From the NCBI RefSeq assembly GCF_032062105.1, contig NW_026926657.1, forward strand, positions 62,001-126,000: a stretch of DNA of 64,000 nucleotides, read 5' to 3'. Each line of letters opens with the position of its first letter. The stretch's first letter is position 1. The DNA is from Saccostrea cucullata (Eukaryota). This document shows, one piece after another, positions 17,601-58,384 of the stretch. Below the pieces are notes generated by a model that was not told where the DNA came from, searched no databases, and was given only the letters and a program-made list of their open reading frames with translations. The translations under genes were made by a program, and so were the position numbers.

Positions 17601-19848
17601 TTTTAGGTTTTAATGATTTTAAATCCATAGACTTGGTCTAAGTTTTATTCAAACGCTAAAAAAGAACAAAAGAGAACATGAAGGCTATGAAGGCTACATG
17701 TACCTTGCACTGAATAGACTTCTAGATCGAATACACACATGTGACCATTGTTGATTGCTTTCATATTCTCAGATGGCCTTTGGAATGCTGAACCGAATTC
17801 AGCTTGACCATTGAGTGTGAAGAAGCGCGTCTGACTTCCACGTTCAATAGATATGTTCACGTCATCATGAAACGTCATCATATCCGCTCTAGATCTCTCC
17901 CTCGTGGCGATTGCAGGGGAAAATGAAGTTACCTTTATTCCTTTCATTGGGTACATTTGATTGTTTTGAATTATCACAGACATATCAGCTTCGCCAAATG
18001 TTGGTCCTAATTTTTGATGTGCATAGGCAGCTAGATTTGCATTAGTTACGGCAAACTTCCTTGGTCTTTTGACACCGTTAAAGTATAAAGTAAACAGAAA
18101 TGCATGGTCGTCTTTGATGTTACCACCAGTGGACCTCCAAGATTGCAAAAGGAAACCTCCATATGCACTGTTATCAGTGTTGTAAAGAACTGTAATTGTG
18201 GGACCTTTCTCATCACAGAGCTGATGAAACTTTGAAGCTGAGCATCCATCACGACTTATTTTGTACAGCAACTCAAAATGACACGTCTTACCAATCCACT
18301 GCGATAGCTGGTCCCTGTCGTCCGCTGTTAACAGTTCTGTTGTTCTAATAATGAAAGATAGTTATACATGTATATATTTAATGACACTTTTGCTTATTGT
18401 ACATTCAGTTCATCCTTAACTTTATTTTAAAAAGAAAAACATGCATGTCTAGAAATTTTCTACAGGTAACGCATCCACTGTAGTTTGTTCGAAAATTCAT
18501 TTTTTATTAATCATTTTAAGATGCAAATTTATTTACCACTGCAATGTGAACTTTTACCTTATTTCATTTTTCAACCAGAAGGAAAGGTATACATGTATTT
18601 TTAACAAGGAAATATACATGCTTATTTACAAGAAAGAAAACTGTTCTCGGGGGTAGTTAATCTTTAGTTTACTATCCTCATCCAGAATTGTATTCAATCT
18701 ATCATTGCTTCCAAGAATTGTATTCAAACTACAGTGTATCTTTTCTTCAACTGCATTTGAAACAGAAATATCAGACATTTGTTTGCCTTTCTATAGTGAT
18801 ATGGTAGATGTCTTGTTCTGTTATTGAAAGGTCGTGTTCAAATTACGGCTGCTGGACTTTTACGAGAAGCACTGACTTCAACAGTGGACGGTTTACTTGA
18901 ACATTTAAACTTGTATCATGTACAGAAGTACATGTACATAATTGAAAATACATAGGAAAACCTTTCTAGTGGTCATAGGTATGGTGTAAGGGTCACCTGA
19001 ATGTGAAGGCTGGGAGGTGAGGGTAGGTTGGTTGTTGTTTTCTTTAAGGACAACTTATATGTGCATTGAAATAACCTATTATTTTCATTTGTTGAAGTCC
19101 TGAGCAAAATATTTACATCGTAATAGAGCTTCCTTACATTGTCCCAGTGCAAAGGTAAGCCGTAAACTGTAAAAGTCAACGCTCCTCGTAAAAGTCTATT
19201 ACTGACCCATGTTGATAGAAAAAAAGTCAGTCATTGTTCTTCGTTCGACATTTCGGGGAAAATTTTGCGGGCCCTACGGATGAAACCTTAAAAACCCTAG
19301 TTTTAAAGTCACTGTTTACGTTGGCCCGATAAACAACCTCACTGCTCAATGCCCCTGAGTGCCAAGTAAAGGTTTAATTTAAAGCCCTCCACCGATATAT
19401 GGTGACGTCTCTATATATGAAAAAGTTTGTGAACAGGACTTAAAACAACAAACAATCAATCAATATAGTGTCGTATCGAGACATCAACGGAAGATTTAGT
19501 CATGCCAGAATCTACCGTGGCACGGGTCCCAGGTTAAATTGGTCTCTCAGAAGGTCCGTATTCCATGTACCATATAAAGGAGGAACTTCTTACTCGGTGA
19601 GTCTTAACTAAGAGCAATAAATGACGAGTCATGATCATATTTCGGCAAATTGGAAAAGAAGAAGCAACGTAGTGAATTTTTATACACAAATTACAATGTG
19701 TATAATTTATAATTTTGATTAATTTCGCGAATGTTCATTTGTTCACAAACTTCGCACATGCCTTTATCCTACAAATAATTATTCATCTTAATCCATAAAA
19801 AGAAAACGGGAATCTATGTAATTATTAGAAATTGTCTCACCTGTCCAT
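14601..19848 (-). CDS. IFI44L: IFI44L-like copy B, TLDc + P-loop GTPase, ~517 aa, 7 coding exons (one GC-AG intron)
   Basis: Exons 19848-19841 (ATG GAC AG|gtgag), 18344-17704, 17560-17481, 17347-17150, 15547-15401, 15292-15121, 14908-14601 join in frame (1554 nt). Motifs LLYKISRDG, GPTFG, AWREPPLW, GQIGSGKS, DTRG, TKLD, FPVKNY. The linker-exon donor is GC (CAT|gcgagt). Confidence 0.87.
15880..16865 (+). mobile_element. Degenerate Penelope-like 3' fragment, split by a hairpin-rich insertion
   Basis: 15880-16115 (PAYGVYISHLI-like; tctacgtatgagcaatttctaaaacg) and 16700-16865 (gggatgctcactcc...cctgatcccacctct) match the Penelope-like copy at 59240-59870. Confidence 0.65.
16118..16695. mobile_element. 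Non-autonomous element with nested inverted repeats and a terminal 62-bp-arm palindrome (possibly Crypton-like)
   Basis: Arms 16551-16612 and 16628-16689 (2 mismatches) surround loop TCGGCCTTCGGCCTC. Additional inverted pairs TCTGATTGGTC/GACCAATCAGA and AGGGAATTTT/AAAATTCCCT. The family assignment is inference. Confidence 0.55.
19230..19465 (+). mobile_element. SINE remnant with (CAAT)n tail
   Basis: Ends in ...aaacaacaaacaatcaatcaat. The core ATGGTGACGTCTCTATAT is shared with 58160-58375 and the tail with 24190-24252. Confidence 0.55.
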
Positions 19849-20883
19849 TTTGCATCTTGTTTTGCTTTGTTTTAAGTTTTGTTTTCTTTCCTTTCCAGGA
19901 ACGGATATGCTCTTTCAAAGCCATCAGATTAAATGATGTTTTCAGAAAATCAAGGTTTGTATGACTTTTAAAAAATGGTTCGATATGATCGCTTTGTTGA
20001 CAAAAGATTTAAATTGCTTTAGAGGCGTTCCTTATTTAAAAAGGGCAATAAATACGATACTACCTTCGGGACACTTATAGACCTAGGCTCAAGACCATAA
20101 ACAGAGAATAGAGATATTTAATTTCATGTGGTGTACATGTACATGTATGTGTTTCAAATGACATTTTTATATAATTATTTTATTCGATCAAAAGCAATTT
20201 TAGAATTGTATTTTATCATCATTTTTTTATACCTTGTATACACTGTACGTTTTATCTATTCGTTTTTATCTAAGTTTGAATTAAGGCTTTTCTCAGTCAC
20301 TGAATTTATTTTTTTTTTACATATATTGCAACCTTTCATCCAATCTGCCATGCATTGATGCCCACATACATACATATTACTCTTGAAATAAAATCAAGTA
20401 CATGTATCGTATCCATGTATAGTATATGGTATGTTGTGTCCAAAAGTATCTATTACAATTAAGTATTTAGTAAGTGAATAATTAACATATCATCATCATT
20501 AAAAATTCATTGGATTTATCGATAATTAAAAATGATGGATAATAAACCAGACTTTACATGCTTATGAACAATAAAATGCGTTTGTGTTACACCAGTTATT
20601 TTGACATAAATCTTTTCTGCTGCACAATATTTAGTTTTTCAAAAAAAAAATCAAAAAGAATAATTTAAAACTACTTTCCCTAGCAACTATTTAATGACTA
20701 ATCAAAGCATAACTTGGCAGTAACAAAATTTTACATCTCTCGTAGTTCAGAAATGTGTTTCTCTGATTTACAAGAAAGCAATAGTACCGTCAGTTTCTTC
20801 ACAAGGGCATTACAATGCTGATTATTTTGATAATAATTATTCGTTTTATATCTGTAATTTCAATCATAAAGAACACATTGCCA

Positions 20884-23800
20884 TTAAGACAGAGTACACA
20901 TGTACCCAGTCTTTTCTCTTGTCCTTTTACCCTCGGCATCCATTTTATCAAGCTGCCCATCCATGAAATCATCCGCAAAATCAAGACACTGTTGTACAGC
21001 GTTCATCAAAAGAATACCGGCACCAATATTCAGTTTAGTCTCCTTTTCGAAGTTTTTTACCGGGAAAATGTGACCACGTGGAAGTCCCATAATCTCTCCA
21101 ACTTTCCTAACAGCTTTAGCAATAGTTGTACTTGTAAACGTGTTTGAGATATCCTCCTCCACATCCGGGCATATATTGTCTAGTTTGGTCAGCAGGACGA
21201 CTTGTGGCATGTCTATAATTATGAAATAAGACATCAACAATACATTTATGTCATTTAAAACATTCACTTTATATGTTATTAGTTTTGGCTCTGAAAAACT
21301 TTTAAAGTTTTAATTATATATGACATACGAAATCAGATGATATTTCTAGAAATATATTTACCTTTTTTTAACTTTAATTATTGATTTCATAAAAAAATTA
21401 AAAATGGCAGTTTTATATGAAACCTTAGACTTCTCTTATTTCTAAAATCATTCTAAAACATTTATCTTAGTCTGTTTCTTACTTCTCTGATTGAAGATGA
21501 TTTGCAGATCTTTTATCTGTTTACGGACTTTTTCAGGCATGACGTCGATGGTGCTTCGATCTACCACAATGGCTACACAGTGAATTTTATCCTGCAGATT
21601 CGGGTCATTTATGAATTTAGGACTATCTGATGACATTGGAACCATGGGATTGAACTACAAATGATAAGTCTCATTTAAGCCACAGCAATTTGACAGTTGT
21701 CCCATTTTCTGTTACAATCAATGATCATGACATTTTTTTTTTTACAAAATGAGTACATTGAATATTGAGCAAGATATCCTTTATTTGGCAAAAAAGTGAC
21801 CAAGAGAAAAAAACATTTTCTAATTAGATTAAAAGTAATGAACTGGTTTCAAATTTGAATATCTAAACTCTACCTCTGAAACAATACTTTAGACGAACAT
21901 GTGTAATCGACCTTGAGATATGCACAAATGAAAACAAAATAATTTATCAGTACAACTTTTATCCACTGGTTACATTTTATTTAAGTTAAAATAGATGCAG
22001 GAGAAAGCAAACCTGGTACTGATCTGGAATATTACCATCCAGGATAAAAGCAATTTCTTGTACATCCATTTCAAATTCGTCCTCGAATCCTCTCGTGACA
22101 CACAGACGAAAGTTAAGGAATTTCCCTGAGGTAAAGTCTTTGATTTTGTATTTTCTAAACTGAAAAAAGCATGTTGATGTTATATATTTTGCTCACAGAA
22201 AATGAAAACAATCGTAGGTTTTCATAACATTATCTGCATTGACACTCATTGCAAAGTAATCCCAATACCGAATGTCCTTGAAATAGATTAACACGAAAGT
22301 GTTGTTTAGAGAGATGTGATATACCTATCCCGTTTTTCCATCACCAGTAAAAGCTATTCTGATTTAAAACAAAATAAAAACCGTATATAGTAGACATACA
22401 GCTGTCGTCACACGGTGCTCAAAGCTCCCACTGGAAGTTTTACTGGTGATTTCCCACGGAAAATGGAGTTGACTGAGTTGAAAAAGCTGGACTTTCCTGC
22501 TCCAATTTGACCAACCAAAAGAATGTTTGCTGCGGACACATTTGTTCCTTGGAATGGTTTGTAGTCCACGAGCGATTTCTTTAGGTTACAATAAAACTTA
22601 AAGATAAACAATATATTTATTTCAAAAATCATTAATACTTCTAAAAATTTCTCATATTGATAACCTCATTATGTTATGTAGAATAGATGCAGAAAATTTG
22701 CAAAATCTTTCAGAAATTTCAAGAAATGTGTGCAAATACTTGAATTAGATATACGGAAAATAGCACAAAGTCGCACATATGAACACCAAATTTTGTGCAC
22801 CATGTATCGATTTTGTGCAATTTATCTTTAAGCGTTTTTGCTTAAACCACACTTGGAATAAAGTTTGTTGCTATTGCAAAATAATTTGGATTAATCTTTG
22901 CTAAAATATTTAGCAGATTCATCAAGCAACCAAAATTTGAATAGATTTTTTATCATTGAGTCACATGTTTAAATATCGTAGTATCAAAGATAAATTATCT
23001 TTTAAGATAAAGATAAAACTAACAGACTTTTATCAATTTTAGAAAAAAAATTTCATTGTCAAGAAAAAGAAACTTTTAAAAAAAATGATATTTTAAAAAA
23101 GGTACCAAATTTTACTTTTGATTCGATTCAAGAGTTACATTTTCTTGGTGAATTTTACCAAATTGTCAATTTTCATGTTTCTAAACATAATCATATTTAC
23201 TATCAATGAATAAATCAAGAAAAATGCATATAAATGCAATAGCAATAAATTTAATTACTGTCCAAAATCACATTCTTTGCTTGTCTTATCTCAAGCTTAA
23301 GGAAGTAAATTTAAAAAAAAAAAAAAGGCTTTCGATTATTATTTGTAAATAAATAAACCCATCCCCTTATAATAGGACTTGATCCTGAGCAGAAAGGGGA
23401 TATAATTGTCAGTTGAGTAGTTTATTAAGTTTATTAAATGATTATACATGTATGCTGAAAATAATCATCGAAACATTTGCTAGACGATAAATTGCAGAAA
23501 GAAAATTTTCAAATATATTATTTATTATAGAGTTACTGTACTTTCAATAATTATGTATTCACATGTAAAGCAAACTTGGTTCTTGTCTCATCTGAAGGGT
23601 TCTTGTATAAAGCCTTAAAATTAACCTGAATGTAGACACAGTAGGGAGTGGTGCCTATTTGTGCAAACATTGCGTTTGTTTGATGAAAAATGTCAAAACA
23701 AAAAAAAATACTCCATCGCTCCATTCTGGTGGTTCTCTCCAAAGTTCGATACAATTCTTCCCTCTTCGTTCCTCTACAACAAAAATTAATAAACACTATT

Positions 23801-24348
23801 ACTACATGTATATCACTTCAAATCTATCAATATTTAAATATTGCATGAATATTTTGTGGGGATATTTTGATTGGTGCTTTCTGGATTACTAAACAATAAT
23901 AAAATTAATCTTGAATGCATTCATTACCTCTTCAACATGAAATGGAGGTCTCTTAATCTTAGATTATTGTCAGTTATATACTATATCTAGTAGTTAAAAT
24001 GTAAATAGTATATGTAGTATAGTATAGCATTGTATATTATACTATGTGTAGTTAGAACTTTCCCAATTTTCAGTATCATGGGCAAAATTTCACAAGACAT
24101 GGCGGTTTTTATGCATTAGGAGAAAAGGATACCCATCATTTTTTATATCAAAATTGACTTTTTTCATCAATAGCTCATCTTCATCATATCATATGAGTGA
24201 AAAATTCTCAAGAGGGACATTAAACAACATACAATCAATCAATCAATCAATCATCATATCAAATAAATAAATGAAATCCTCATAAAAGCAAGATATCTTA
24301 TGAAATTGCACTAATCAAACGTCTAATCATGAAAAGCTTACCTGACAT
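20884..24348 (-). pseudogene. Short TLDc-less IFI44-like copy C (duplicate of copy E), frameshifted
   Basis: Exons 24348-24342, 23773-23712, 22596-22400, 22159-22013, 21654-21483, 21212-20884. The G1 exon is 197 nt versus 198 in all other copies (1-bp loss at ~22450-22452). G3 DTRG is changed to VTRG and VVDGS to VVDRS. The C-terminus still reads CTLS. Confidence 0.78.
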
Positions 24349-24915
24349 GGTTTCATTTCTTCTTCTCGGAAAATGTTTTTTTTTTAATATTAGCTATTTC
24401 TGAAAAAAAAAATTCTTCTATCGATTTTGTCTTGAGTTGTATGGCCTTCAATTTTGATAATAATTTTGCCATTTAAATTTACACTTTTCTTCTTTTCAGA
24501 TTCAGTCAGATGACCTAGATTCAGAGATAGCCTCAGTTTCTCAGAAGTCTTTAAAAAATGTAATTATAATCTAATTAAACACGAGAATATGTTGTGTACT
24601 TTGAAATGTTTTGCAGCTCCTTTTTATTGCTTTGTGTTATCATTTAATATCATTTTTTGCACCCTAATCAGATAAAAGGTAGTTTTTATTTTAATTCTTT
24701 TTAAATTTTTTATTCTTTTATTTATTTTGGATGAAGATAAAGATATATTAGAAAAAGTGCCCTTAACAGATATTTTTAGAAATTACATATTAAGAATGGG
24801 ATGAGTTTTTTTTTTCTTTTTTTTTTTTTTTTTTTGCAATTAATGGTTATCAATATTATTTAAAGTTTCCATGCGTAAAAAAGAACCCTTCAGATGAGAT
24901 AAATAGTATTTTTAC

Positions 24916-25594
24916 CTCTGTTTTCCATTCAGGAGGTTCTCTCCAAGGTTTATCAAAAACTTTTGGTCCTTGGCCATCTAATGTTAATATGGAAAAGATT
25001 TTTTTATATTTTTCAAGAAAAAAATTTCGAAACTCAAAAAAGAAAAAAAGAAACTGTACCTACGACAAGGTAGACCTCCAAATCTGTAACCCTCAGATTG
25101 TTGTTTGTCATAGAGTTGGTATTCTGCCCGCCGTAACTGAAGTTATTATTGTTATTCATATTCAGACAACCATTCAATGCAAACTCTTTTCCAGACTTTG
25201 AAATATTCCCTTTAAATGTCCGTAAATCACTATTGCATCCAAAGGATGGACCATGATCTTGATTCCCTAATCCAGCCTGATCATAATTGGAGCTATTGAC
25301 AGGGGCTTTCAGTTGATTGGACGAACCATTATACTGCAGTCGGAACAGAAATGCCCTGGCATCACTGATTTAACTGTTATTGGAGTTCGAGCTCTGTGAC
25401 AGGTACCCCCCAAATATCGTGTTGTTAGTGTTGTATAGAACCGTTACCGTAGGACCCTGACCGTCACACTTCTGATGGAAGGTTGTGTTTGAACATCCAT
25501 CTCTGCTGATCTTGTACAACAACCGGAAGTGACATGTCTTTCCTATCCAGATGGTCAACTGCTCACGGTAATTTTGCTTCAAAAGTTCAGGCAT
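24916..25594 (-). pseudogene. Truncated IFI44L copy D: TLDc exon + linker exon only (duplicate of copy F 5' part)
   Basis: Exons 25594-25060 and 24977-24916 closely match copy F (MPELLK...; DGQGPKVFDKPWREPPEWKTE). There is an in-frame TAA at 25372-25370, the conserved W is changed to S (QSSNS vs QNWNS), and no GTPase exons of its own precede copy C. Confidence 0.8.
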
Positions 25595-25699
25595 GGTTTA
25601 AATTCTCCGTTTTACCACTGAAAAAAAAAATCATAAAATTTATCTTAACTTTTCAAACCAAGACTAAATGCAAGATCCATTTTGATGGCATAGTTGATT

Positions 25700-25860
25700 T
25701 AAGGAATCACTGTCTAGTTAGGAGGCTATGCCAGGGCATCAACAATAGTGGAAAAAATGGGATAATTTGCGTAACCGGCGAAGTCGTTTAAAATTATCCC
25801 ATGTTTTCCACTATTGTTGATGTCCCTGGCATAGCCTCCTAACTAGACAGACATTCCTTA
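25700..25860. repeat. Long near-perfect palindrome (~70-bp arms), probable terminus of a non-autonomous element
   Basis: Arms 25700-25768 and 25791-25860 surround loop GCGTAACCGGCGAAGTCGTTTA. Same architecture as 16551-16689. Confidence 0.85.
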
Positions 25861-27939
25861 TATTTCCATTTTACTTGAAACAACAATCTTAAAATAAATC
25901 GGAAAACCGTCTAATTAGTAGATTTGCAATGCACGAGGCATTCTATATTATTTTCTATTGACCCGCCCAATGACGTCAAATTTTACTAAATTAAATGATT
26001 ATTTAGTTACTGTAGCAAAATATCAACATTTATAGAATGAATAACAAAAGAATTTTAAATTCAAAGCAATCTTGTTAACTTTAATTATAAACGTGACCTA
26101 GACTTGGGTTGTTGGTGGCACGAACACGTGTATAGGCCCTAGGTCGCTTCTCTGTCGCCATATTGAATGCAGTGTTGCAGTTGAAGAAACGGGAGTTTGT
26201 CAGCATCATGCTGCATGGTCAGTAAACATATTTATGTGGATGTTGAAATAACAGATGAAGTTAAGTTGCTTAAGAAGTCGGATAGTAATGACTGAGGGAC
26301 GATGTCTGTATCAGATAATGAAGTGCAGATATATATGTATGTGGCGATGCTGATTTCCCCACGTGGTTCAGATGGACTGTTTACCATGTTTACGAAAGTG
26401 GAGTTCTCGGTCTCGCCAGGTTTCGGGGATTCGGACTTGTAACTTGCTTTCGATCCGGAGATAATTCATTATATTTATTTTGTTTGTAAAAAGATATATC
26501 ATATCTAATTTTTTAGTAAACAATAAAAGAAGCATCTTTTTTTTCCCCAGTGTATTTATACGCCAGTCATTGTATGCAATTTGACATTTGACCTTTCAGT
26601 AGTATTTCAATAGAGAAACTTACTTGCCACAGGAATCACGGAGGAATTAACAAGATTGACTTTTGTTGTGTTTATCATAGGGAAAGCAATTGGAAATGGA
26701 AATGGAAATTTATTTTTCTCTACTTTACTGCTCTTAAAATTAATTTCATTTAAAAATCTGCATCGGTGACACAACACTACAGTGCTTTCTTGTCATCTTG
26801 GGGCAACATTCTGGTATGTCATCACCAAAGCCATGTGATATGATATACCAAGGTATGATGTAAAAAATAATATATGTAAAGTAGAACCCCATTTTTACAG
26901 CACTTTGATAGAAAATAAATATGCGTGTGTTAGGCTCTCTAGAAATGAACCTTCAAGCGTTCTCAAATTTATTTATCGTAAATAAGTCAATATTAAGGAT
27001 TTGTGAAAGAAAATATACAAAAAAGCAATATTCCATCGAATAAATATGATTGTAGTATAGGTTTCTTGCACATGACAAAACAGATGTCCTGCTAATAATG
27101 AAGTAATACTATAGTGCTTCTTTCAGCACAGCTGACCTGATTATTTTTTGTCAATATACGCTTGAATAGCTTGGAGTACTTTAACTTCTGTTAGACTTTA
27201 AAAGTTCACGGTGTAAGCCGAAAGACCTTCATATATATATAATGTATTAAGTCGTGTGCTGACGATTTTTTTTTTGGCTTGTTAGACTTTTAGATGCATA
27301 ATCACATTGTAATCGATTGTATCTCTTCTTAACTCTACCAACCGTGACGACAGTTGTTAATTGTTGTGTAGCAGCTTGCATCGACAAAAATGTAGAATGC
27401 GGTATATATGTTTAAAACAAGTAATCTCTTGCAGTATCGAATAATTTCATTTAATCTGAAAATTTATATTTAGTTATATTTATCTGCAGATGATTACATT
27501 TAAACAATAAATAACTTGTGAACATATTTGTGCATACATTTATTTCATTGTTTGCTTCATTCTGGGAGGTTTGTCATTTTTCTGGTTGATATTTGAAAAC
27601 AACTTTGCTCCTTAATGTTTCGTAGACCAAAACCACATCTGACCCATTTTTACTCAGTACCAGAAACATTACCAAAAACTTACCACCCTTAAAAGAGAAA
27701 AAAAATATTTGTACATGATTATAAACGAACACTACACAGTCTACTGAACCTTCTTCACATCGATGGAATATTTTAGGAGGAATAAGGTTTGCATTCATCT
27801 TTCAAAGCTTCCTTCATTGACTTACTTACTTTCTCAGTAAATTAACTCAACTGTTAACAGTTCTTACCTTACAGCTCTTCACGAGATACCTTACCTAACA
27901 TGCTTTCTCGATTCCCTTGAAATGGCTTTTTTAAATTTA

Positions 27940-27955
27940 TTTCCTTCTTTCGTTT
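27940..27955 (-). promoter_or_regulatory. IRF-like motif upstream of putative first exon of copy D
   Basis: Minus strand AAACGAAAGAAGGAAA, about 50 nt upstream of donor TAG|GTAAGG (exon end 27895). Confidence 0.4.
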
Positions 27956-28931
27956 GCGTTACACTGTATGGTGAACCATGTCGATCATTTTGCATTTTAA
28001 TATTAAGGGTGGGTCTCCATTTGTCAAACCTGCGTTCGCCGAATGCGTCACTTGACCTTTTATAACCCGGCTTTTTACTTCTTTGACCAGGGAAGGTTAG
28101 TGGCCGGGCTCGCCGATTTCTCAGGTCTTAACTATTCGGCACGGTAAGAGCCGGTGTAAAGACAAATAATTACCCCATAGAATAATGTCCGGTAGTCATT
28201 TTTCGCTACTCTCAAACTTTGCATACCTAACGTGAAGAAAAATGACCCCGTAGAACAATGCCCCCTTGCGGATAAAAGTTTAAATTTTTAGGGGGCAAGA
28301 AAATGAAACCTTCTGGCCAAAATGCTTACCTGAGCTTAATTGAGAATAAATTGGAGATATTTTTTTTTATTTCATTGCATTATACAATTCTTGCTATTTT
28401 AAGGTCAATACGATTATTCAGAATTTTGAGGAGGAGAAGAAGATTTATCTATACCAAAGGGCGAGGTGGAATTGATTTTCGATGGTGTGGAAAACCATCA
28501 TATAACAGCAAGAACAGCAATGATTGTTTTATCAACAATCAAATTGATACATACTTAATAAGCATGCATGTCAAATTTGTTGTTTACAGTTGCCCAAGTC
28601 CTTGCCAATCATGGTGAGAGAATCGGAGTTAGCATAAGCATAACCAGTATCAGTTTTACATTTGCTATCTATTTTTGGTGCAATGAAGAATAAAATACTA
28701 GTAGCATCATAAGAGACAAAAGAAACAAGATATCATAGAAATATTTTTTATGAAATCCTCAAAATGAAGTAAGGAGAATTTCCATTTACTCTACTGGATC
28801 AAAATATTAGGACAACAAAACTTTATTACTCTGGTTTACAATAAAGCATGAGTATTCAAATGCTGATTTTTTCACAGTCACATTCTTCGTTATATATCTG
28901 AAGTTTTGATAAAAACACACATTGTCGATCC

Positions 28932-31900
28932 TTAAGACAAAGTACACGTGTACCCAGTCTTTTCTCTTGTCCTTTTACCCTCGGCATCCATTTTATCAAG
29001 CTGCCCATCCATGAAATCATCCGCAAAGTCAAGACACTGTTGTACAGCGTTCATCAAAAGAATACCGGTACCAATATTCAGTTTAGTCTCCTTTTCGAAG
29101 TTTTTTACCGGGAAAATGTGACCACGTGGAAGTCCCATAATTTCTCCCACTTTCTTCACAGCTTTAGCAATAGTTGTACTTGTAAACGTGTTTGAGATAT
29201 CCTCCTCCACATCCGGGCATATGTTGTCTAATTTGGTCAACAGGACGACTTGTGGCATGTCTATATTTATAAAATGAGCCGTCAAAATGTAGTTTAAAAC
29301 ATTAATATCATGTGTTATTTATTTTGATTCGGATTCAGACGTTGTACATGTACACCTAAGTATGATATAGAGATGAGATATTCTCCTTTAAAAAATATTC
29401 TCTAAACTTTTATTATTATTCATAAGAATTACGAAAATGAAATGTCATTTAGAAACTTAGCTTGAGACTTATTCCTGCGATCATTCGATGACATTAATCT
29501 TACTTTGTTGAAATTAATTTTAGTTTGTTTCTTACTTCTCTGATTTAAAATGATTTGCAGATCTTTTATCTGTTTCCGGACTTTTTCAGGCATAACGTCG
29601 ATGGTACTTCCATCTACCACAATGGCTACGCAGTGAATTTTATCCTGTAGATTCGGATCATTTATGAATTTAGGACTATCTGATGACATTGGAACCATGG
29701 GATTGAACTACAAATGATCAGTCTAAATTAGGCCACAGCAATCTGGCAGTTGTTTTTTCAATTTTTTTTAACAAAATGAGTACATTAAATATTGTGCATG
29801 ATATCCTTTATTTGACATATCATGACTTTTCTCTCAAATATTAGAGCATAGAGTGTTGATTGAAATAAAAAGAAAAGATACAGAAAAATATTCTACATTT
29901 TCTAAATTAAATTAAAATCAAATGGTTTCAAATTTGAACATTTGTTAAATTCTACCGCCGAAACAATACTTGAGACCAACATCTAGATTTGTAATCGACC
30001 TTGAAATATGCACAAATGAAAACAAAATAATTTATCAATAAAAGATACATCAGATTTTACTGATGCATTTAAAACTTTTGAAGTTGATTTAGAAGCAAGA
30101 GAAAATAAACCTGGTACTGATCCGGTATATTACCGTCCAGAATAAAAGCAATTTCTTGTACATCCATTTCAAATTCGTCCTCAAATCCTCTTGTGTCACA
30201 CAGACGAAAGTTAAGGAATTTTCCTGAGGTAAAGTCTTTGATTTTGTATTTTCTGAACTGAAAAAAGCATGTTGATCCTTATATATTATGCTTCCAGAAA
30301 ATAGAAATCCTTGGTTTTCATTACATTACCACCATTGACACTCATTGCAAAGTAATCACCATACCGAATGTCCTCGAAATAAATTACATGAGAGTGTTGT
30401 TTTAAAAAAGGTATTATATCTATCCCTTTTTGCCATCACCAGTAAGAACTATTCTGATTTAAAGCATAAAAAAAACCGTATATAGTAGACATACTGCGGT
30501 CGTCACACTGTGCTCAAAGCTCCCACTGGAAGCTTTACTGGTAATTTTCCCGCGGAAAATGGAGTTGACCGAGTTGAAAAAGCTGGACTTTCCTGCTCCA
30601 ATTTGACCAATCAGAAGAATGTTTGCTGCAGACACATTTGTCCCTGGCAGTGGTTTATAATCCACGAGCGATTTCTTCAGGTTGCAATAAGACTTAAAGA
30701 TAAACAAAATCTTTATTTCAGAAATCATCAATACGTCTAAAAAGAAAATTCTCATATTGATAACTTAATTAATGTTATCTAAAATAGATGTAGAAAATTT
30801 GCAAAGTCTTTCAGAAATGTCAGGAAATGTGTGCAAATACTAGAATTGAGATTTACAGAAAATAGCACAAAGTCCGATTCTGAACACCAAACATTGTGCA
30901 ACATTGATTTCGTGCATTTTATCTTTAGGCGTTTTTGCTGAAACCACATTTTGAATAAAGTTTGTTGCTATTTCAAAATCATTTGAATTAATCCTTACTA
31001 CAATATTTAGCAGATTCATCAAGCAACCAGAATTTGAATAGATTTTTTATACCCCCCGCTTGAAAAGCGGGAGGGTATATAGTAATCGTTACGCTTTGGG
31101 GTACCCATCTCTTATCCGCAACTCCTCTCATACCACTGAATGAAATTTGATAAAACTTTCAGAGAATCATTTTTACATATTGCCATTGTGCACCTCCTAT
31201 TTTACTTTTTGATCCGACACATATTTTGGGTTTCACGGCCACAGCAAAACATGGACTTTGCCATTATAACTATATGGAGGCGGGGGGTATCATTTAGTGA
31301 GGTCATCGCTCACAGTACCTCTAGTTTTTCATTGAGTTACATGTATATGTATCGTTGTATCAAAGATAAATTATCTATCAAGTCAATACAATTCTATTTT
31401 AAAGAGACTTTTATCTTTAAATATAAAACAAACGTGCATTTCTTTTTTCTGGATTCTTATCTTTCATTTAGAAAAAAAAAATTATTGTCAAGAAAAAATA
31501 CATATTTTAAATATTTTGTCAAGTTACCAAATTTTACTTTTGATTCGATACAAAAGTTATATTTTCTTGGTGAAGTTTACCAAACTGTCAATTTTCATGT
31601 TCTAAACATATTCATATTCACTATCAATGAATAAATAAAGAAAAAATGTATATAAATGCAATAGCAATAAGAAGACGTTACGGTTTAAGCTTTATTGTGC
31701 ACTAAAAATTTAAAATTCTCTTAAAAAGTTATTAAATTGGCTTTAACAATAGTTGAGTGGATGAATTTGATAAATCAAAGAATGTGGCATGAAGAAGAGC
31801 CTTTCTTGAAAATATGACGTCATTAATTTGGTACAATTTCAAGTTCAATGCAGAAAAGCTTCAAAATGACTCGTTTTTCTGCTAATTTTCCTTTAGAAAA

Positions 31901-33765
31901 TAGCGTCTTCCACCGTCGCCCGCTTTAATTTTTGGATATATTATGCAAACAGCTATGAAAAAATCACATATCTCAAAATCTTCACAATCTTCCTCTACAG
32001 CGTTCTGGTTTAATCTGCGACGGTGGCAGAGTATGATTTCTGAAAGAAAAATTCCACTGAAAATTGAGGTTTTCTGCAACTTTTTAAGAAAATACGGGAA
32101 AATGCTCAAGTTAATGACGTCACAATTGGCATTTAGGAGGTCATTTGAGAAAAACCATTTGTGTATACTTACGGCAGAGAATTCCTATGATTCAGAAAGA
32201 ATTAATTTTGATTTCTTATATCACTTTCATATTTCATAAAAATATAGGGCTTTATTTGTATTGAAACTGTACATTGTACCTTGAAGTTCTTTAATTATTG
32301 ACCAAAATCACATTCTTTGCTTGCTTAGTGTCAAGAAAGTAAATTTTAAAAAGGTTTTCGATTATTATTTTTAAATAAATAAACCCATCCTTTTATAATA
32401 GGGCATATTTTTATTGATCCTGAGCAGAAAGGGCATATAATTGTCAGTTGAGTAGTTTATCAATTCATTAAGGACTATACATGTATGCTGAAAATAATCA
32501 TCGAAACATTTGCTAGACGACAAAATCAGAAAAAAAAATTCAAAAAATGTTTCAGTTACTGTAATTTCAATATGTATTCACATGTGTAGCAAACTTAGTC
32601 CTTGTAAAAAGCCTTAATATTAACCTGAAATGAAGACAGTAGGGAGTGGTGTCTATTTATGCAAACATTGTGTTTGTTTAATGTAAATGTCAAAACAAAA
32701 AAAATTACTTCATCGCTCCACTCTGGTGGTTCTCTCCAAAGTTCCATACAATTTTTCACTCTCCGTTCCTCTACAACAAATAGTTAATATGCACTATTAC
32801 ATGTACTATATCACTTTAAATCAATTTAATATTTATATAATTATTGCATAAATATAGGAGGGGGGGAATTTTAATTGGTACTTTTTGGATTACTAAACAA
32901 TAATAAAATTAATCTTGAATATATTCATTACCACTTCAATATGAAATGGAGGTCTCTTAATCTAAGATTCTTGAAAATTATATACGATATCCATTTACAC
33001 TGTACTTTAGTTAATAAATTATGGATTTCCATCCCTAATAGGACCAAATTCCCTACCCTTAAATGTCCGTCAAGTGCATAATACTCTGATATTATATTAA
33101 AACATTTTATAATTATAGTGGAAAAGGACTTCCTACGAGAAAGTTGAAAAAATTCCATTAAACAGTAGTTAATTAACAAAGAATGCATTGAAGTCTATGG
33201 GGAAAAGCAGTTTTTTTTTTCAAAATAAAAATTCAAATAATTTGAATATCAATAAATCCTGCTGTGGAAAGATGCATTGAAACATGAAAAATACAATGAC
33301 AATTGAAAACCATTTCTTTTTACTGGCTGAAATTTTTCAATTGATTTTTTTCATTAATTAAAAAGGGGGAGATAACTCTTACAAAAATTCAATTTCAGAA
33401 ATTAGGATACATCCCACTGTACATACTGATAGTAATAAATGGGAAGTATGTCTAAATAAATTGAGTATTCAATACCTACAATCTTTTATGTATTCATGAT
33501 TTTTTTTTTCCTTTTAGGGATTGAATTCCTATACAATATGCAGCAGTTAGAACTTGAACTTTCCTGATTTTCAGTATGGCAAATTTCACATGACATGGCA
33601 GCTTGAGAAAAAGATACCTATCATTTTTTTCTTAGTTGAAATTTATTTTTTAATCAATAGCTTATTTTCATTGTATCAAAAATAAACAACCTCCTCGTAA
33701 AATAAAGACAACTTATAAAATTGCCTTATAATCAAACGTCTAATCACGATAAACTTACCTGACAT
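28932..33765 (-). CDS. Short IFI44-like GTPase copy E, no TLDc domain, C-terminal CaaX (CTLS), ~304 aa
   Basis: Exons 33765-33759 (accATG TCA G|gtaag), 32770-32709, 30692-30495, 30257-30111, 29707-29536, 29260-28932 are all GT-AG and in frame (915 nt). Protein reads MSEERRVKNCMELWREPPEWSDE...GQIGAGKS...DTRG...TKLD...FPVKNF...GKRTREKTGYTCTLS*. Confidence 0.85.
31049..31325 (+). mobile_element. Short Helentron/DINE-like (HINE) insertion
   Basis: 5' hairpin ATACCCCCCGC-TTGAAAA-GCGGGAGGGTAT; subterminal GCGGGGGGTAT near the 3' end followed by a GTGAG..CTCAC stem and CTAG. Inserted in a T run and absent from the paralogous intron of copy C (~22945). Confidence 0.75.
31669..32290. mobile_element. 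~620-bp insertion (probable MITE) in copy E intron
   Basis: Present between ...aatagcaata and ttaatta... in copy E but absent at the matching site of copy C (~23248). The terminal inverted repeats are degenerate. Confidence 0.5.
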
Positions 33766-33767
33766 GG

Positions 33768-33777
33768 TTTCATTTCC
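33768..33777 (-). promoter_or_regulatory. ETS-IRF composite-like element (GGAAnnGAAA) immediately 5' of copy E start codon
   Basis: Minus strand GGAAATGAAA directly before CC-ATG. Copy C has AGAAATGAAA at 24351-24360. Confidence 0.35.
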
Positions 33778-34157
33778 TCTTCTCGGAAAATGGGTTTTTT
33801 AAAAAAGAATTATTAAGTATTTCTGAAAAAAGTCTTCTTTCGATTTTGTGTTGAATTGTATGGCCTGCCATTTTCATCATAATTTTGTATTTTGAATTTA
33901 CACTTTTCTTCATTTCAGACTCAGTCAGATAATCTACTAGTAGTTCGTCTATTTAATATAACTCATCTAAACTCGGTGTAACATCTGTTTGTTATCTCTT
34001 TACATAATGAGTAGTTTTTTCCATACAAAACGATTACATTGCATTCCTTATAAAAATCTATTATGTTTGATTGTTATTTGGAGTAAGTGAAAGGCAACTG
34101 AAATTTATATTTGGAGGTACAGAATAACCTGTAGTTCCTAAATTGATAATAACAAAG

Positions 34158-34397
34158 CAGGCACGTAGCATCGTTTTTGAAAGGGGGGAGAGTTGTGGCC
34201 AACTTTTTTCAAGGCGAACTTCCTTTCACTTCCAATTTTTTCCCATATTTCCTTGCTATAAATATACTGTGGTCAAAAGTGGGGGGGGGGGCAACATTTT
34301 CTTCAATGGACATTTTCTATAGTAAAGGTAATGTTGGGGGGGAAAAGTGGGGGGCCAGGCCCCCCCCCCCCCCCCCCCTCCCGTTGCTACGTGCCTG
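34158..34397. mobile_element. MITE with CAGG...CCTG termini (hAT-like)
   Basis: TIR CAGGCACGTAGCA(T/A)CG at both ends, with internal G and C homopolymer tracts. No clear TSD seen. Confidence 0.7.
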
Positions 34398-34609
34398 CAA
34401 TGTATAAAATGCACAGACCGTCTACTTTTTAAAAAAAAAAAATTGATCAAATGAAAAACTGCATAAGATTTGTGTGGCTATTGAATATATTTATTACAGA
34501 ATTTCATTCTTAGTATTATACATTGTTTATGCAAAATTAAATTGGAAAGCCCTAGCGCTGAACCTCTTTTGCTCATTTATTACATCTAGCTGTAAATACA
34601 ATGGCAGAC

Positions 34610-37544
34610 TCAGTCTTTTTCTTTTTTCAACTTTCCATCTGTAGCCATTTTGTCAAGTTGTTCATCCATGAAATCGTCTGCAAAATCAAGACACTGTTGT
34701 AGCGCTTCCATCACAAGAATATCCACGCCTGTCTTCAGCTTGGTCTCACTTTCGTAGTTTTTCACCGGAAGCACGTGACCACGAGGAAGACCCATGATTT
34801 CTGCAACTCTTACAACAGCGTCAGAAACGGCAGAGCTCGAAAATGTGTTCTTGATGTCCTCTTCCACTTCAGGACATATTTTGTCTAATTTAGTCAGGAG
34901 AACAACTTGTGGCAAATCTGTATTTAATGATACATTGAATGATAACTACGTAATTCATTAGAGTTATATTTGCTCTTTTTTATTTACTTTTTTGATTTAT
35001 TTGAGAAAGAATATATACATACATCCACATTTTTTTTTGTACAAGTGCAATGTACGGAAGCTCTTTTACGATATGAATATTTAGCTCAACATTTAATTAA
35101 ACGAATATAGCAAGTTATTTCCCAGAACAAATAAGTACAATTGAAGAAATCGACAACCATCCTTCCATCAACTTCCGACCTTCGTGTGTTAGTGTCCCCT
35201 ACATCATTTTTATGACCACTAAAAGGCTTTCTTCTCGATCATCAATTATGTACCTCCGTACATGATACAGGTTTTTATGTCTAAGTAAAACATCAACTGT
35301 AAAAGTCAGTGCTTCTCGCATAAGTCCATTACTTGGTAAGGGTTTAAAAAGCATTGTAAACCTTTTATAGATTTGTTCTAATTTACCTTCAAAGAACATT
35401 TTTCAAGTTACAGGGATTTGTAAATAAATTCACCAAGACTTAAGTCAAATTCTCTAAGAAGATTGGTAATATTAATGATTATACATGATTTCTTTTATGT
35501 AGAAATATTTATTTTTCATGTTTTTACTTATGATATTATTGTTGCATGTTGACATAATTTTTTTTTCATTTTGTGTGATCTTTTCCTAATATATTCTTAC
35601 TTCTTTGATTCAGTTTGACTTGTAGATCTTTCATCTGCTTGCGAACTTTGTCGGGCATTACGTCTACAGTACTACTATCTACCACAAAAGCCACGCAGTG
35701 AATTTTATCCTGTAGATCCGGGTCTTTTATGTAGCCAGGGGTTTCTGATGTGAAAGGAACCATTGGATTAAACTACAAAAGAGTCAAACAGCCATTTATT
35801 TTATATATCTTTAAGAGTTTTGCGCAATCTTTCTCTGTAAAATAAAACGTCTAATATTCATAAGTTGTTTTTTTTTTCTTTTTTTACATACAAACGGATA
35901 GACATATGAAGGGCTTTTACTTAATACTCCTCTCTTCATCTCTCTGACCAGATCTTCTTATAAGTACAAACCTGGTATCGGTCCGGTATATTACCATCCA
36001 AAAGGAAGGAGATTTCCTGCACATCCATAGCAAATTCCTCCTCTAAACCTCTGGTGTCACAAAGGCGGAAATTAAGGAACTTTCCAGATGAAAAATCCTT
36101 GATTTTGTATTTTCTATACTAAAATGATGAGAAAAATAATTGAAAACGAAATGAAATATTGATTACTTTGCTCAATATCATTCATGCTGAAAAAAAAATA
36201 ATCTATTGCAAAAATTAAATTGTTTGGATTATTTTTTTAAAAAAAGAATAAATATAATTAAAAATAATTTATCATTTAATAATGTCGAATTCGATTTTGT
36301 TTACATACAGCTGTTGTCACGCTGTGCTCAAAGTTTCCACTGGAAGCTTTACTGGTGATTTTCCCGCGGAAAATGGAGTTGACCGAGTTGAAAAAGCTGG
36401 ACTTTCCCGCACCAATTTGACCAATCAGAAGGATGTTGCCTGTAGTAACATTTGTCTCTGTCATTGGTTTGTAGTCGATGAGAGATTGATTCAGCTTCTG
36501 ACAGGTCTTTAAAAGATTTAGTATACAGGTTACGTATAGTGTTTAGGTCCGATGAAATATCATATACTAGTACTCAGTATTATGAGCAAAACTTAACCCT
36601 TTGATTTTTTTTCTCTATGCAATACCGGGGGTAGTAGATGACGAGATATAAAAAGATACTAGTAGTTTAAAGGGACAGCACACACACAAGCCCAAATGTT
36701 CAATAACTTTACGGTATCTATCTTTGTAAAAAGTGGGAGAGGGTAAAGGTAAGCCCCCACCTCATAGCCCCCGCCCCCGGTACTGACACCTTTGTTCATT
36801 TGTACAATTTTACCTCAGTGTTCCATTCAGGGGATTCTCTCCAAGGTTTGTCAGAAATCTTTGGTCCAGGTCCATCTACAATATTTATTTGAATTATATA
36901 CTATACTACAATGTAGTTGACTATTTCTAATCTTTTAGCAATTACACTCATAATATAGAGGTTTGTTTTTTATGCCATTGGATGTCTATTGAATACTATA
37001 AAAATACTATACCTACAACAAGGTAGACTTCTAGGTCTGTCACCCTCAGATTACTATTTGTAATAGAGTTGGTATCATATCCATTGTAATTATAGTACCC
37101 GCTCGTCAGACTTACACTGCCATTCAGTACAAATTCTTTTCCAGACTTTGAAATATTCCCTTGAAAAGCCATGAGGTCGCTGTTGCCACCAAACGATGGA
37201 CCATAATTACTAATGCCAGAGCCGGCATAATTATAATATGAAGCATTGACAGGAAGTTTAACTGGATTTGAAGAACCATTATACTGCAGCCGGAAAAGAA
37301 ATGCATTCGCATCACTGATGTTGCCGCCACTGGAGTTCCAGTTCTGTGACAGATATCCCCCAAATATCGTGTTGTTGGTGTTATAAAGAACCGTTACTGT
37401 AGGTCCCTGATTGTCACACTGTTGGTGGAATGTTGTAGCTGAACATCCATCTCTGCTGATCTTGTATAATAACCGGAAGTGACAGGTCTTTCCTATCCAG
37501 GTGGCCAACTGCTCACGGTAAGTTCGTTTCAGAAGCTCAGGCAT
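34610..37544 (-). CDS. IFI44L: IFI44L-like copy F, TLDc + P-loop GTPase, ~472 aa, 6 coding exons
   Basis: Exons 37544-37013, 36875-36814, 36506-36309, 36118-35972, 35772-35601, 34917-34610 are all GT-AG and in frame (1419 nt). Motifs LLYKISRDG, GPSFG, PWRESPEW, GQIGAGKS, DTRG, TKLD, PVKNY. Probable non-coding first exon ends at 38915. Confidence 0.92.
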
Positions 37545-39001
37545 TGCTTATTTTCTCTGTTTAAAAGACAATTGAAATCAAAATCAATTCTTTTAAAGAA
37601 AACCTTGCCAAGACAGAAATTGAGGAAAATGGAAGATTCAACACTGTGAGAGGGTTTTCTACTATGTTTACATAATTATGTTAAAAGAGTAATTACCTCT
37701 AAGAACTAAAAGTGTGCATAATCTTCTACATCCCTTCGTGTCAAAATTTGCACAAGGAATAATAATAGAAATATTTTTTTTAATTGTTCAGAAATAATAG
37801 GAGACCTGAACATAATTTGTATTACTATGCAGATATATATATATAAACAATGCTTTAGATTAATACTTTCAATAATAAAGATTATTTTGATGATAGAGGA
37901 GGAATTTTCCTTTCTTACACAAATCCATTTTTTTACCTTTGAGCTTGACTACGTACTCTTTTAAAAAGTATAACCTTCACCATAAAATTAGAACAGTTGG
38001 TGCCCGCGATATATTTCAAATATTTCATATTTCAAAAATGTTTTCTATGTAACATTATAATTAGACCGTTCAATAAGTTTGACCTCACGACCTTGACACG
38101 TTGGAGTACTTGCATGACTATATTTTTGAAAAAAAAATCAGCTTTAGATACCAAGAATTCGACCTTGGCCTTTCTTTTATATTTTTAATGAAAAGTAAAA
38201 TAACCCTTGTCAATTGAAAGGTTTTCAAAGGATAATGCTTAAATTTCATATTTGTGTGTATTCCTTGTGAAAAGATCTAGCTTAATCTATAGTAATCAAC
38301 AGTATTTTACCTCAACCTCTCGTGTTCGACTTATGTTTCAAAAAATTAATATAGGCTTGGCCATTAGCTGGCATACAGTTGCATCGGTGTTTCACGATCA
38401 CATTTTTTTTTAAACTAGCTTTAGATTTTGCTAAAACCTAGGTACAATATTTAGGCTTAAGTTAATATTTCACATGGTATACAGGTTTAACTGCGATAAC
38501 ACACAAGAACATTGTTATTAGAATATTTTATTAGAGTTTTTGCTAATTAAATAGTGGCCGATTGTGAGAAGCAAAGTGTTCCATGCAAACGAAGTGTCAT
38601 GTTCGATCAAAATGCTAAATATCAAAAGTGGGCGTGTTCACCAAGTGTACTTACCAAGTTGCAAACGATGATAAAAAAAACTTTTATACACCTTGAAAGT
38701 GATCTGTTCAAGTTTTTTTTTTTATAAGAGAAGCAATTAAGTTTAATACGTTAAGAAGAACAAAGTATATATCTTGAGTTTTTTACTTGTCTCGGTCAAA
38801 CTTACTTGGTCAGAATTTCATTTTAAACGGATTGTTACCCAATTCCGAACTTTTAAGCAACCGAACAATCCACTACTTCAGAACTAGACAGAAGCATGTA
38901 CGATAACTACTTACCTTTCAGGTTCGCTTTAATGTAAAAATATTTATAATACATGTGCTCCGATTGCTTAGATTTTCTAAAAATGAAACGTACCGGTATT
39001 G

Positions 39002-39018
39002 AGTTCTCCTTTCGTTTT
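39002..39018 (-). promoter_or_regulatory. IRF-like motif upstream of putative first exon of copy F
   Basis: Minus strand AAAACGAAAGGAGAACT, about 90-100 nt upstream of donor AAG|GTAAGT (exon end 38915). Shares AAAACGAAAG with the copy A site. Confidence 0.45.
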
Positions 39019-39254
39019 ATCATTACTTTGTATGGTGTGCCATTTTGATCAATTCAACCTTTAGTCTATTTTTTTTTAAAACTACATGTGTACTGATATT
39101 TTTAGATTTGTTGATGACTCCTTGTATAATTATATTTATACAGTGTATGTATGACGTAAATTACAGTTTCCATAGAAAATTGTAAATATTGGATTTATTG
39201 TTGCTAATAATGTTTCCTATAAAGTAAACTAATATATAAATATATGATTGTCCA

Positions 39255-58375: not shown

Positions 58376-58384
58376 TATGAAGCA

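Follow-up and report, generated by a model that had tools for sequence, protein, structure and literature searches.

A tandem array of IFI44-like genes in Saccostrea cucullata with a putatively membrane-targeted short form and a disrupted second long-short pair

Layout of the array

The window, a stretch of 64,000 nucleotides from contig NW_026926657.1 of Saccostrea cucullata, carries six IFI44-like genes, A to F, all located on the minus strand in head-to-tail orientation, for which we built gene models with GT-AG boundaries:

34610..37544 (minus): gene F, intact long IFI44-like gene, TLDc, linker and P-loop GTPase, 472 aa
28932..33765 (minus): gene E, intact short IFI44-like gene, GTPase only, 304 aa, ending in KRTREKTGYTCTLS (basic patch and CaaX)
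24916..25594 (minus): gene D, TLDc exon of F type plus the 62-nt linker, with an in-frame TAA at 25372-25370 and the invariant W69 replaced by S
20884..24348 (minus): gene C, E-type short gene, a pseudogene here, 1-nt deletion near 22451, A252T, S260R and D285V at conserved columns
14601..19848 (minus): gene B, intact long IFI44-like gene, 517 aa, from a distant clade with S. echinata P0112 as its sister; one of its introns is GC-AG
1017..5208 (minus): gene A, intact long IFI44-like gene of a distant clade, 518 aa, grouping with P0098 and P0118

In transcription order the central genes read F (long), E (short), D (F-like, GTPase deleted) and C (E-like), the order that the original prediction had given, and its distance of ~845 bp between F and E was likewise borne out (845 bp from the F stop at 34610 to the E ATG at 33765). 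Comparable spacing was found at two further junctions, E to D and C to B (942 and 1036 bp). TLDc is present in F, A, B and D and absent from E and C; the F and A exons match PF07534, F with an E value of 7e-22. The G1, G3 and G4 motifs of the P-loop GTPase are intact in A, B, E and F. A neighbouring gene is located at 43345.

Gene F comprises six coding exons with no internal stop, shows 0 departures at 106 conserved columns, and its protein is letter for letter identical to the NCBI S. cucullata IFI44-like protein P0004. AATAAA/ATTAAA hexamers of F are located at 34581, 34495 and 33957, ahead of the E upstream region. An in-frame CxxS 3' of the F stop was set aside as probably due to chance. 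F, A and B share the layout of the IFI44/IFI44L family, an N-terminal TLDc and a C-terminal P-loop domain, from which E differs by the absence of TLDc and by its CaaX end. The predicted N-terminal structure of F matches the TLDc fold of the V-ATPase regulators OXR2, NCOA7, mEAK7 and TBC1D24 (Foldseek E 4e-8 to 4e-7), a likeness that E, being without TLDc, does not share. IFI44 is counted within the TLDc family (OXR1, NCOA7, TBC1D24, mEAK7) in 10.1101/2025.05.24.655954, the accessible part of which gives effects on V-ATPase for five further TLDc proteins of humans and not for IFI44. As far as the available parts of the sources go, the oyster protein CgIFI44L-1 (479 aa, TLDc and MMR_HSR1) is cytoplasmic and IFNLP/STAT-dependent (PMC11682996), oyster IFI44 is strongly induced by the virus OsHV-1 while the molecular role of IFI44 proteins is described as unclear (PMC4111845), and IFI44 families expand repeatedly, with 19 members in zebrafish (10.1101/693333).

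Every gene appears to possess a separate 5' region or first exon of the F type:

38994..39054 (minus): putative 5' non-coding exon/promoter region of F, with the IRF-type motif AAACGAAA
33759..33936 (minus): E upstream region and first exon, an F-like promoter core followed by TTCCGAGAA (GAS-like) and GAAATGAAAC (ISRE-like) immediately 5' of ATG TCA G|gt
27935..27990 (minus): D promoter/5' exon homologue, 74% to F 38998-39054, z 6.1

The F 5' region has homologues at D 27935-27990 and at E 33795-33904 (z 6.1 and 0/300 shuffles in both cases). The IRF-type motif is not enriched in the window (16 occurrences, 14.7 expected), and the names GAS and ISRE, as used for the two motifs of E, are consensus labels.

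The short gene E and CaaX forms across bivalves

The GTPase of E is 99% identical to that of the near-identical NCBI protein P0001, a partial model that begins at the first GTPase exon and is itself 76% identical to the F GTPase. The start codon and the 7-nt first coding exon of E (ATG TCA G|gt) are predicted from the sequence alone, and the N-termini of the S. echinata proteins P0002 and P0003 differ from the E model. E forms a clade with P0002 and P0003 (100/100) next to F (91/81), and this clade (100/100) is nested inside the F-type clade (99/99). The predicted structure of P0001 consists of a G domain with a single long C-terminal helix (235-279). Two further features of E bear on its origin:

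28932..28955 (minus): CaaX tail of E, corresponding to 3' UTR in F, apparently read through owing to the loss of 1 nt immediately ahead of the ancestral stop
32771..33030 (minus): what is probably left of the TLDc exon end and of the intron between TLDc and linker, in E intron 1, C equivalent at 23774-24010

The alignment of the F and E stop regions (z 6.4) contains one gap and places TGA against TGG, and most F-type proteins of Ostrea and Magallana end at the F position. The end CTLS, with a Cys four residues from the C-terminus and an aaX pattern, is conserved in E, C, P0001, P0002 and P0003, and in E it apparently came about when a frameshift extended the reading frame into the former 3' UTR. 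A CaaX box ending in serine is usually farnesylated. The description of E as membrane-anchored in the original prediction is to be read as a prediction from the CaaX motif.

As for the missing TLDc, comparison of the relic DNA with F 36876-37143 gave z 3.6 for C (2/300 shuffles) and z 2.1 for E (11/300), and three control introns gave z -0.2 to 0.8. A TLDc protein profile detected no significant relic in intron 1 of E or C, with best scores near 0 bits, and D as DNA query found none there either (z 1.1 and -0.6), so we treat the TLDc relic inside E intron 1 as a moderate to weak candidate. E is best described as a putative Saccostrea-specific derivative of F in which TLDc was lost and a CaaX box acquired at the C-terminus.

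Among the database matches E-type proteins occur in Saccostrea only and F-type long proteins across oysters, and the F-type genes of other oysters gave no E-type match. The 19 matches to the E last exon comprise three short CaaX proteins, all from Saccostrea, and 16 long proteins without CaaX. One S. echinata scaffold (635,219 bp) carries two E-types together with A- and B-type matches, with no F-type long protein among them, nor did any other match represent an F-type long protein of S. echinata. In C. virginica a different CaaX short form, P0054, is located on a contig of the same size as that of F-type long genes, contig size being a proxy for co-location only. A single-clade origin of the CaaX forms was rejected (AU p 1e-93; 3 changes), which puts the number of separate origins of TLDc-less CaaX forms in bivalves at three or more. 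Within the 50%-identity representatives alone CaaX and TLDc loss were not associated (3/87 versus 0/38, p=0.55; one of the three strict), and a Cys at position -11 (8/243) is nearly as frequent as at -4 (9/243). Transmembrane tails are rare and unlinked to TLDc loss (5/114 versus 2/129). Searches of the open-licence literature found no paper describing a CaaX IFI44 and nothing on oyster IFI44 architecture.

Copying and decay of the second pair

D begins with MPELLK, carries the 62-nt DGQGPK linker and is sister to F in the TLDc tree (99/94), in agreement with the predicted closeness of the two. The D and F proteins are 75% identical and the D-F intron aligns no better than shuffled sequence. 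Together with P0267, an S. echinata model of TLDc and linker only, they form a trio of no firm order, AU tests placing P0267 with D or F giving p 0.37 and 0.29. The predicted loss of the F-type GTPase exons from D was confirmed, the acceptor and ~28 nt of the first GTPase exon being left at the breakpoint:

24517..24568 (minus): deletion junction, stub of the D first GTPase exon joined to E-type upstream sequence

The stub (24548-24523) is similar to F 36506-36481 (z 7.2, 0/300 shuffles in a narrow comparison; z 3.6, 2/300 in a wider one), and within a few bases it is followed by sequence homologous to the E upstream region at 24517 (z 16.9). From there on C resembles E including the introns, as predicted, with 20802-24517 colinear with 28847-33936 and exons 90-97% identical.

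The original prediction had overlooked the lesions in this second pair, namely the in-frame TAA of D, the frameshift of C and the D-to-V change in G3 of C, which reads CVTRG instead of CDTRG (D285V, F numbering). Due to these lesions the pair is dead in the present sequence. Damage is confined to D and C, as A, B, E, F and a 1093-aa pol ORF are without breaks. dN/dS is low (D-F 0.21, C-E 0.09) and the protein changes of C lie nearly all on the C branch (0.037 versus 0.0035), implying long purifying selection or homogenisation followed by recent decay.

The proposal that F and E were duplicated as a unit stands with respect to exon loss in D, and copying as a single block is plausible. D-F is, however, older than C-E. 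dS is 0.75 for D-F (CI 0.52-1.09) and 0.24 for C-E (CI 0.16-0.33), 4-fold sites differ at 24/64 and 16/107 positions, respectively (p=0.0013), and the raw ages are about threefold apart. Reconciling the two values requires a later homogenisation of C with E. Non-coding divergence between C and E is patchy (JC 0.14-0.43; chi-square p 2e-14 across seven non-coding segments), and the last exon, with 2/42 4-fold differences, is flanked by segments at 0.43 and 0.38. This mosaic suggests gene conversion, a case that leans on AT-rich intron alignments near the shuffle level (intron 5: 66.5% versus a shuffle maximum of 61.5%). Splits at the species boundary are weak or collapsed in both trees (D/F/P0267 and P0002/P0003/E+C), as would be expected from duplication near speciation.

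The reading in which we place moderate confidence, its inferred history and function included, is that of a tandem array of IFI44-like immune GTPase genes in Saccostrea that evolves by birth and death. An F-type duplicate would have lost its TLDc exon, recruited an ATG in the first exon and been frameshifted into its 3' UTR, yielding CTLS, before S. cucullata and S. echinata split. F and E, being adjacent, would then have been copied together, probably as a block of neighbours and roughly when the two species separated. C would later have been partly overwritten by E via gene conversion, and a deletion would have taken the D GTPase exons and the region upstream of C, after which both copies decayed recently.

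Alternatively, no cassette ever existed, D being an old F paralogue into which a 5.1-kb E segment (33936-28847) was copied much later, replacing the GTPase half, with function as in the favoured reading. The non-overlapping dS intervals fit this order of events, as do C-E introns that align next to a D-F intron at shuffle level, the coincidence of the 5' limit of C-E homology with the D breakpoint, and the grouping of E and C apart from both S. echinata E-types (100/99). After a single recent copying event, however, even divergence would be expected, which the non-coding C-E segments do not show, and S. echinata, too, has two E-type proteins on one scaffold as well as a TLDc+linker-only F-type model, so that we consider separate events unlikely, if worth serious attention. 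Far less credible is that D and C are one split or chimeric gene, in which the D linker exon (phase 0) is spliced to the first GTPase exon of C (phase 0) to give a TLDc-GTPase-CaaX protein that kept both copies under selection after the deletion. The phases are compatible, yet they are the same in all paralogues; both copies bear the marks of purifying selection, yet both are disrupted here, and C still has a first exon and a linker exon of its own. On paper P0267 and P0003 (GTPase and CaaX, no linker exon) would be complementary halves, but they lie on contigs of different size, and a CaaX end occurs in 0/129 TLDc-bearing proteins. We give even less credence to an assembly artefact, be it a second haplotype placed in tandem as D-C or lesions that are sequencing errors. 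The C frameshift sits in an A-run, the S. cucullata contigs among the matches are short (13-278 kb), and probable alleles or close copies at the locus are ~12% apart in TLDc (A versus P0098, B versus P0358). Against this, D and F differ far more, their proteins being 75% identical and their intron unalignable, C also carries three substitutions at conserved columns, the D stop is of the substitution type, and the other genes and the pol ORF show no breaks.

The question of a paired module

The original prediction took the linkage of F and E to suggest a sensor/helper or hetero-oligomer module. This part found little support in the sequence comparisons: the copied pair is pseudogenised, spacing of ~0.85-1.0 kb recurs from E to D and from C to B, the genes are head-to-tail and the E-type was matched in Saccostrea only. 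A dedicated or obligate module whose linkage is held by selection, with E anchoring F at membranes via G-domain contacts, is accordingly improbable in our view. It would be in keeping with the adjacency of intact long and CaaX genes, their probable joint duplication, the about simultaneous decay of D and C, which is expected of a co-dependent pair too, and the contig size shared by P0054 and F-type long genes in C. virginica. It is at odds with the similar spacing at other junctions, the 16 of 19 last-exon matches that are long and lack CaaX, and the S. echinata scaffold with two E-types and no F-type long match. Moreover, both F and E keep G1, G3 and G4, hence there is no sensor/executor asymmetry in the GTPase.

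F and E resemble paired plant NLRs (RRS1/RPS4, RGA4/RGA5, Pik-1/Pik-2) in being two linked paralogues, one with an extra domain, but they are not NLRs and are arranged head-to-tail with separate 5' regions, unlike the head-to-head NLR pairs with a shared promoter described in the accessible part of PMC9528088; furthermore, the extra domain of F, TLDc, is ancestral and not an integrated decoy, E being nested among TLDc-bearing genes. With the GBPs, of which GBP-1, -2 and -5 are prenylated and others not, they share the array of immune-induced GTPase paralogues with CaaX in some only, here at the level of the motif, and heterodimerisation of the prenylated GBPs can redirect non-prenylated ones (PMC2998424, in the part available). 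E differs in its predicted build of a 304-aa G domain with one C-terminal helix, as it is not a large dynamin-type GTPase and has no large helical C-terminal domain. No GBP was among the 50 rows given by a wide fold search, which leaves room for a relation.

Toc33/34, GIMAP and septin GTPases form dimers via their G domains, as the title of 2j3e also states, and gave weak sequence matches (septins E 0.004-0.009, Toc34 0.016, GIMAP7 0.025); the sequence search found no solved IFI44 structure, its best hits being septins (E 0.004). In fold, the E-type model comes closest to the dimerising GTPase Toc33 (Z 15.1, rmsd 3.6, 206 aligned), within 1 Z of three other GTPases. With ~15% identity and fold scores tied with unrelated small GTPases, dimerisation cannot be transferred to E from these families.

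In the birth-and-death reading E would be a prenylated, membrane-bound GTPase whose lipid anchor replaces TLDc-based targeting, and F the soluble, TLDc-bearing form, the two being virus-inducible paralogues at different locations. Like other close paralogues they may dimerise with each other, without constituting a dedicated one-to-one module. A bolder proposal, which we regard as speculative and rather doubtful, is that in bivalves, on three or more occasions, an IFI44 duplicate became a prenylated membrane-anchor GTPase devoid of TLDc that recruits TLDc-bearing paralogues via G-domain heterodimers to virus- or microbe-containing compartments and so delivers TLDc to V-ATPase, F and E being such a unit that arose in Saccostrea by exon loss and a 1-nt frameshift into the 3' UTR. 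If true, it would amount to GBP-like positioning by an unrelated GTPase family and would open a way to the role of IFI44.

In summary, the locus has the look of ordinary birth and death of genes around a single unusual, putatively membrane-targeted variant, not of a demonstrated sensor/helper pair; duplication of the cassette would be unremarkable in itself, and the second pair is dead in the present sequence. F and E, with their 76% identical GTPases and TLDc in one versus a predicted lipid anchor in the other, offer a natural comparison for the site of action of IFI44, G-domain dimerisation and TLDc as a targeting module, and the fact that CaaX was gained repeatedly, and on TLDc-less forms only, is a hint that membrane location matters.

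Architecture of the IFI44-like array

Six-frame translation and self-comparison revealed six IFI44-like genes, arranged head-to-tail within 1-39 kb of the window, for which exon models were derived from the DNA sequence.

Exon models of the array genes in transcription order
37544-34610, minus strand: gene F, 472 aa
33765-28932, minus strand: gene E, 304 aa
25594-24916, minus strand: gene D
24348-20884, minus strand: gene C
minus strand: gene B, 517 aa
minus strand: gene A, 518 aa

F matches P0004, a Saccostrea cucullata protein named IFI44-like by NCBI, at 100%. It contains a TLDc domain (PF07534, E 7e-22), and its predicted model (pLDDT 88.7) matches TLDc structures of V-ATPase-binding TLDc proteins, a group for which V-ATPase binding is described and in which IFI44 is listed (10.1101/2025.05.24.655954, excerpt). 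G1, G3 and G4 are all retained in both F and E. The layout given in the original prediction was confirmed: D is closest to F, sharing the MPELLK start and the 62-nt linker and being its sister in the tree (99/94), C is closest to E and colinear with it across introns and flanks, and the distance from the F stop codon to the E ATG is exactly 845 bp.

Gene B has a GC-AG intron after the linker exon (17480-17481, minus strand) and an 8-nt first coding exon (19848-19841), its N-terminus being backed by P0112 of S. echinata, while the TLDc-linker intron of A houses a 166-bp tandem repeat array (3498-4361). Local duplications of 92-93% lie between A and B (10347-11221 and 11381-13424), and fragments of decayed repeats in an intron of B (15673-16867) recur at 58-60 kb (58374-60231). 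The LTRs of an LTR retrotransposon at 50182-55897 show 99.5% identity across 1028 bp, and its pol frame, open for 1093 aa, comprises RT, RNase H and integrase; it is a very recent insertion, and from the domain order we take it to be Gypsy-like. A host gene (43345-44244, plus strand, and further exons) contains a 300-aa open exon with a signal-peptide-like start and hydrophobic segments; a Pfam search gave nothing above the cut-off, and it may resemble brambleberry.

Origin of the short gene and its CaaX tail

GTPase trees were calculated from 65 and 32 rows, leaving out fish, mammal and multi-domain matches, exon-missing proteins and most of the distant bivalve matches. E, C and the E-type proteins P0001 (S. 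cucullata), P0002 and P0003 (S. echinata) form one clade (100/100), adjoining F (91/81) within the F-type long clade (99/99). This nesting makes E a descendant of an F-type gene that arose in Saccostrea by losing TLDc. A remnant of the end of the TLDc exon and of the intron after it probably persists, as the candidate segment scored z 3.6 in C (2/300 shuffles) and z 2.1 in E (11/300), with controls below 1; a protein profile for the relic gave nothing significant. In the P0002 model the linker is preceded by MSVFVV, resembling the end of the TLDc exon.

Since an alignment around the F and E stops shows a 1-nt gap, with TGA facing TGG, and most F-type relatives from Ostrea and Magallana end at F's position, the C-terminal CTLS of E is most likely a read-out of the former 3' UTR. 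A serine-ended CaaX box usually directs farnesylation. Past its TGA, F reads in frame VCHCIYS-stop (34589-34609, minus strand), which is CaaX-like and roughly in register with CTLS; it may be coincidental or represent a latent tail reached by read-through. The start exon of E was deduced from the sequence, with an out-of-frame ATG 8 nt upstream. Motifs that we take to be GAS-like and ISRE-like lie immediately 5' of the ATG in E (33766-33788) and C (24349-24371, both minus strand) and were found nowhere else; located outside the F-homologous core, they may put the short gene under novel control. In each of the five E-type sequences inspected (E, C, P0001-P0003), G326 is replaced by K/R and Y425 by F (F positions), two columns that long forms conserve at 90% or more.

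The wider sample comprised 243 proteins whose GTPase domain was complete, from 261 kept of 266 after removal of five possibly mammalian rows. A cysteine four residues from the end occurs in 9 of 114 TLDc-less proteins, many of which may be partial models, and in none of 129 TLDc-bearing ones, the proteins not being independent; seven of the nine fit the strict CaaX pattern. Among representatives alone the association was not significant (3/87 vs 0/38). On the tree the CaaX forms need three changes, in the E clade, in P0054 (C. virginica)/P0049 and in scallop P0074, and a single origin was rejected (AU p 1e-93). P0074 and P0105 of Argopecten irradians, both TLDc-less, are identical until the last exon region and then diverge, one ending in CaaX, possibly through alternative last exons that switch the anchor. 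Basic-hydrophobic or transmembrane-like C-terminal extensions in other IFI44-like proteins (P0012, P0022, P0059, P0085, P0090, P0093) suggest several routes to membrane targeting.

Decay and possible joint origin of D and C

D is interrupted by an in-frame TAA (25372-25370), and its otherwise invariant W69 has become S. In C, the initial GTPase exon has a 1-nt deletion, and three conserved columns are altered, the G3 aspartate among them. Sequence error is an unlikely cause, as A, B, E, F and the pol frame are free of breaks. Thus, the second 'pair' consists of two pseudogenes in this sequence, lesions overlooked originally. The proposed loss of GTPase exons from D, a copy of F, was borne out: only the acceptor and ~28 nt of the first one are left, joined at 24517 to DNA homologous to the E upstream region. 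Low dN/dS (0.21 for D-F, 0.09 for C-E) and the short, one-sided C branch in the GTPase tree (0.037 vs 0.0035 for E) point to recent decay. A palindrome of ~168 bp, perhaps a small transposon, lies just upstream of the D TLDc exon (25696-25864).

Whether F and E were duplicated as a unit, as the original prediction held, is less clear-cut. Judged by divergence, a simple same-age test of joint copying fails: dS is 0.75 (0.52-1.09, 197 codons) for D-F and 0.24 (0.16-0.33, 303 codons) for C-E, 4-fold differences number 24/64 vs 16/107 (p=0.0013), and the D-F intron alignment was no better than shuffle, all of which would suit separate events for D and C. C-E divergence, however, is patchy, with non-coding segments ranging from JC 0.14 to 0.43 (p 2e-14) and a last exon with 2/42 4-fold differences flanked by segments at 0.43 and 0.38. 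This is the pattern gene conversion would leave, and the oldest parts come near the D-F level. In S. echinata, the E-type proteins P0002 and P0003 share one 635,219-bp scaffold, and there is an F-type model with TLDc and linker only, P0267, listed on a 44.9-Mb contig, which forms a trio with D and F whose branching order is not settled. Together with the mosaic, these favour an old F+E block duplication with later conversion as the likelier history; separate events keep a smaller but substantial probability. P0001, an intact E-type GTPase, and P0358, a TLDc piece 88% identical to B, are both listed on one 29,615-bp S. cucullata contig, likely another haplotype, in which the neighbour of B might be unbroken or the D-C copy might be missing.

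The proposed functional pairing of F and E

Tight linkage had been taken to suggest a paired sensor/helper or hetero-oligomer module. Tight spacing is an array-wide property, with 942 bp from the E stop to the D promoter homology and 1036 bp from C to B, the 9393-bp B-to-A gap being the only long one. NLR pairs typically lie head-to-head, share a promoter and include an integrated domain (PMC9528088, excerpt), whereas F and E are head-to-tail with separate 5' regions: that of E is its own, homologous to that of F (z 6.1), and the polyadenylation hexamers of F precede E. A search with the last exon of E gave 19 matches, three short with CaaX, all from Saccostrea, and 16 long without it. No S. 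echinata F-type long protein was among the protein-search matches, though expected near the top, which annotation gaps could explain. A dedicated sensor/helper module is thus unsupported and quite improbable.

Dimerisation or cross-talk of F and E is plausible by analogy and from modelling, given that non-prenylated GBPs are redirected by GBP-1, -2 and -5 through heterodimerisation (PMC2998424, in part), that the predicted P0001 model (pLDDT 90.8) best matches Toc33 (Z 15.1, rmsd 3.6, 206 aligned), three other GTPases scoring within 1 Z of it and thus level, and that septins, Toc34 and GIMAP come up as weak sequence matches.

OsHV-1 induces IFI44 in oysters, where the role of the protein is called unclear (PMC4111845), and zebrafish has 19 ifi44 genes (10.1101/693333). 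A survey of open-licence papers by title and abstract gave none on CaaX or TLDc-less IFI44. The element of lasting value is an IFI44 form that lacks TLDc and ends in CaaX, whose origin can be traced and which has parallels in other bivalves.
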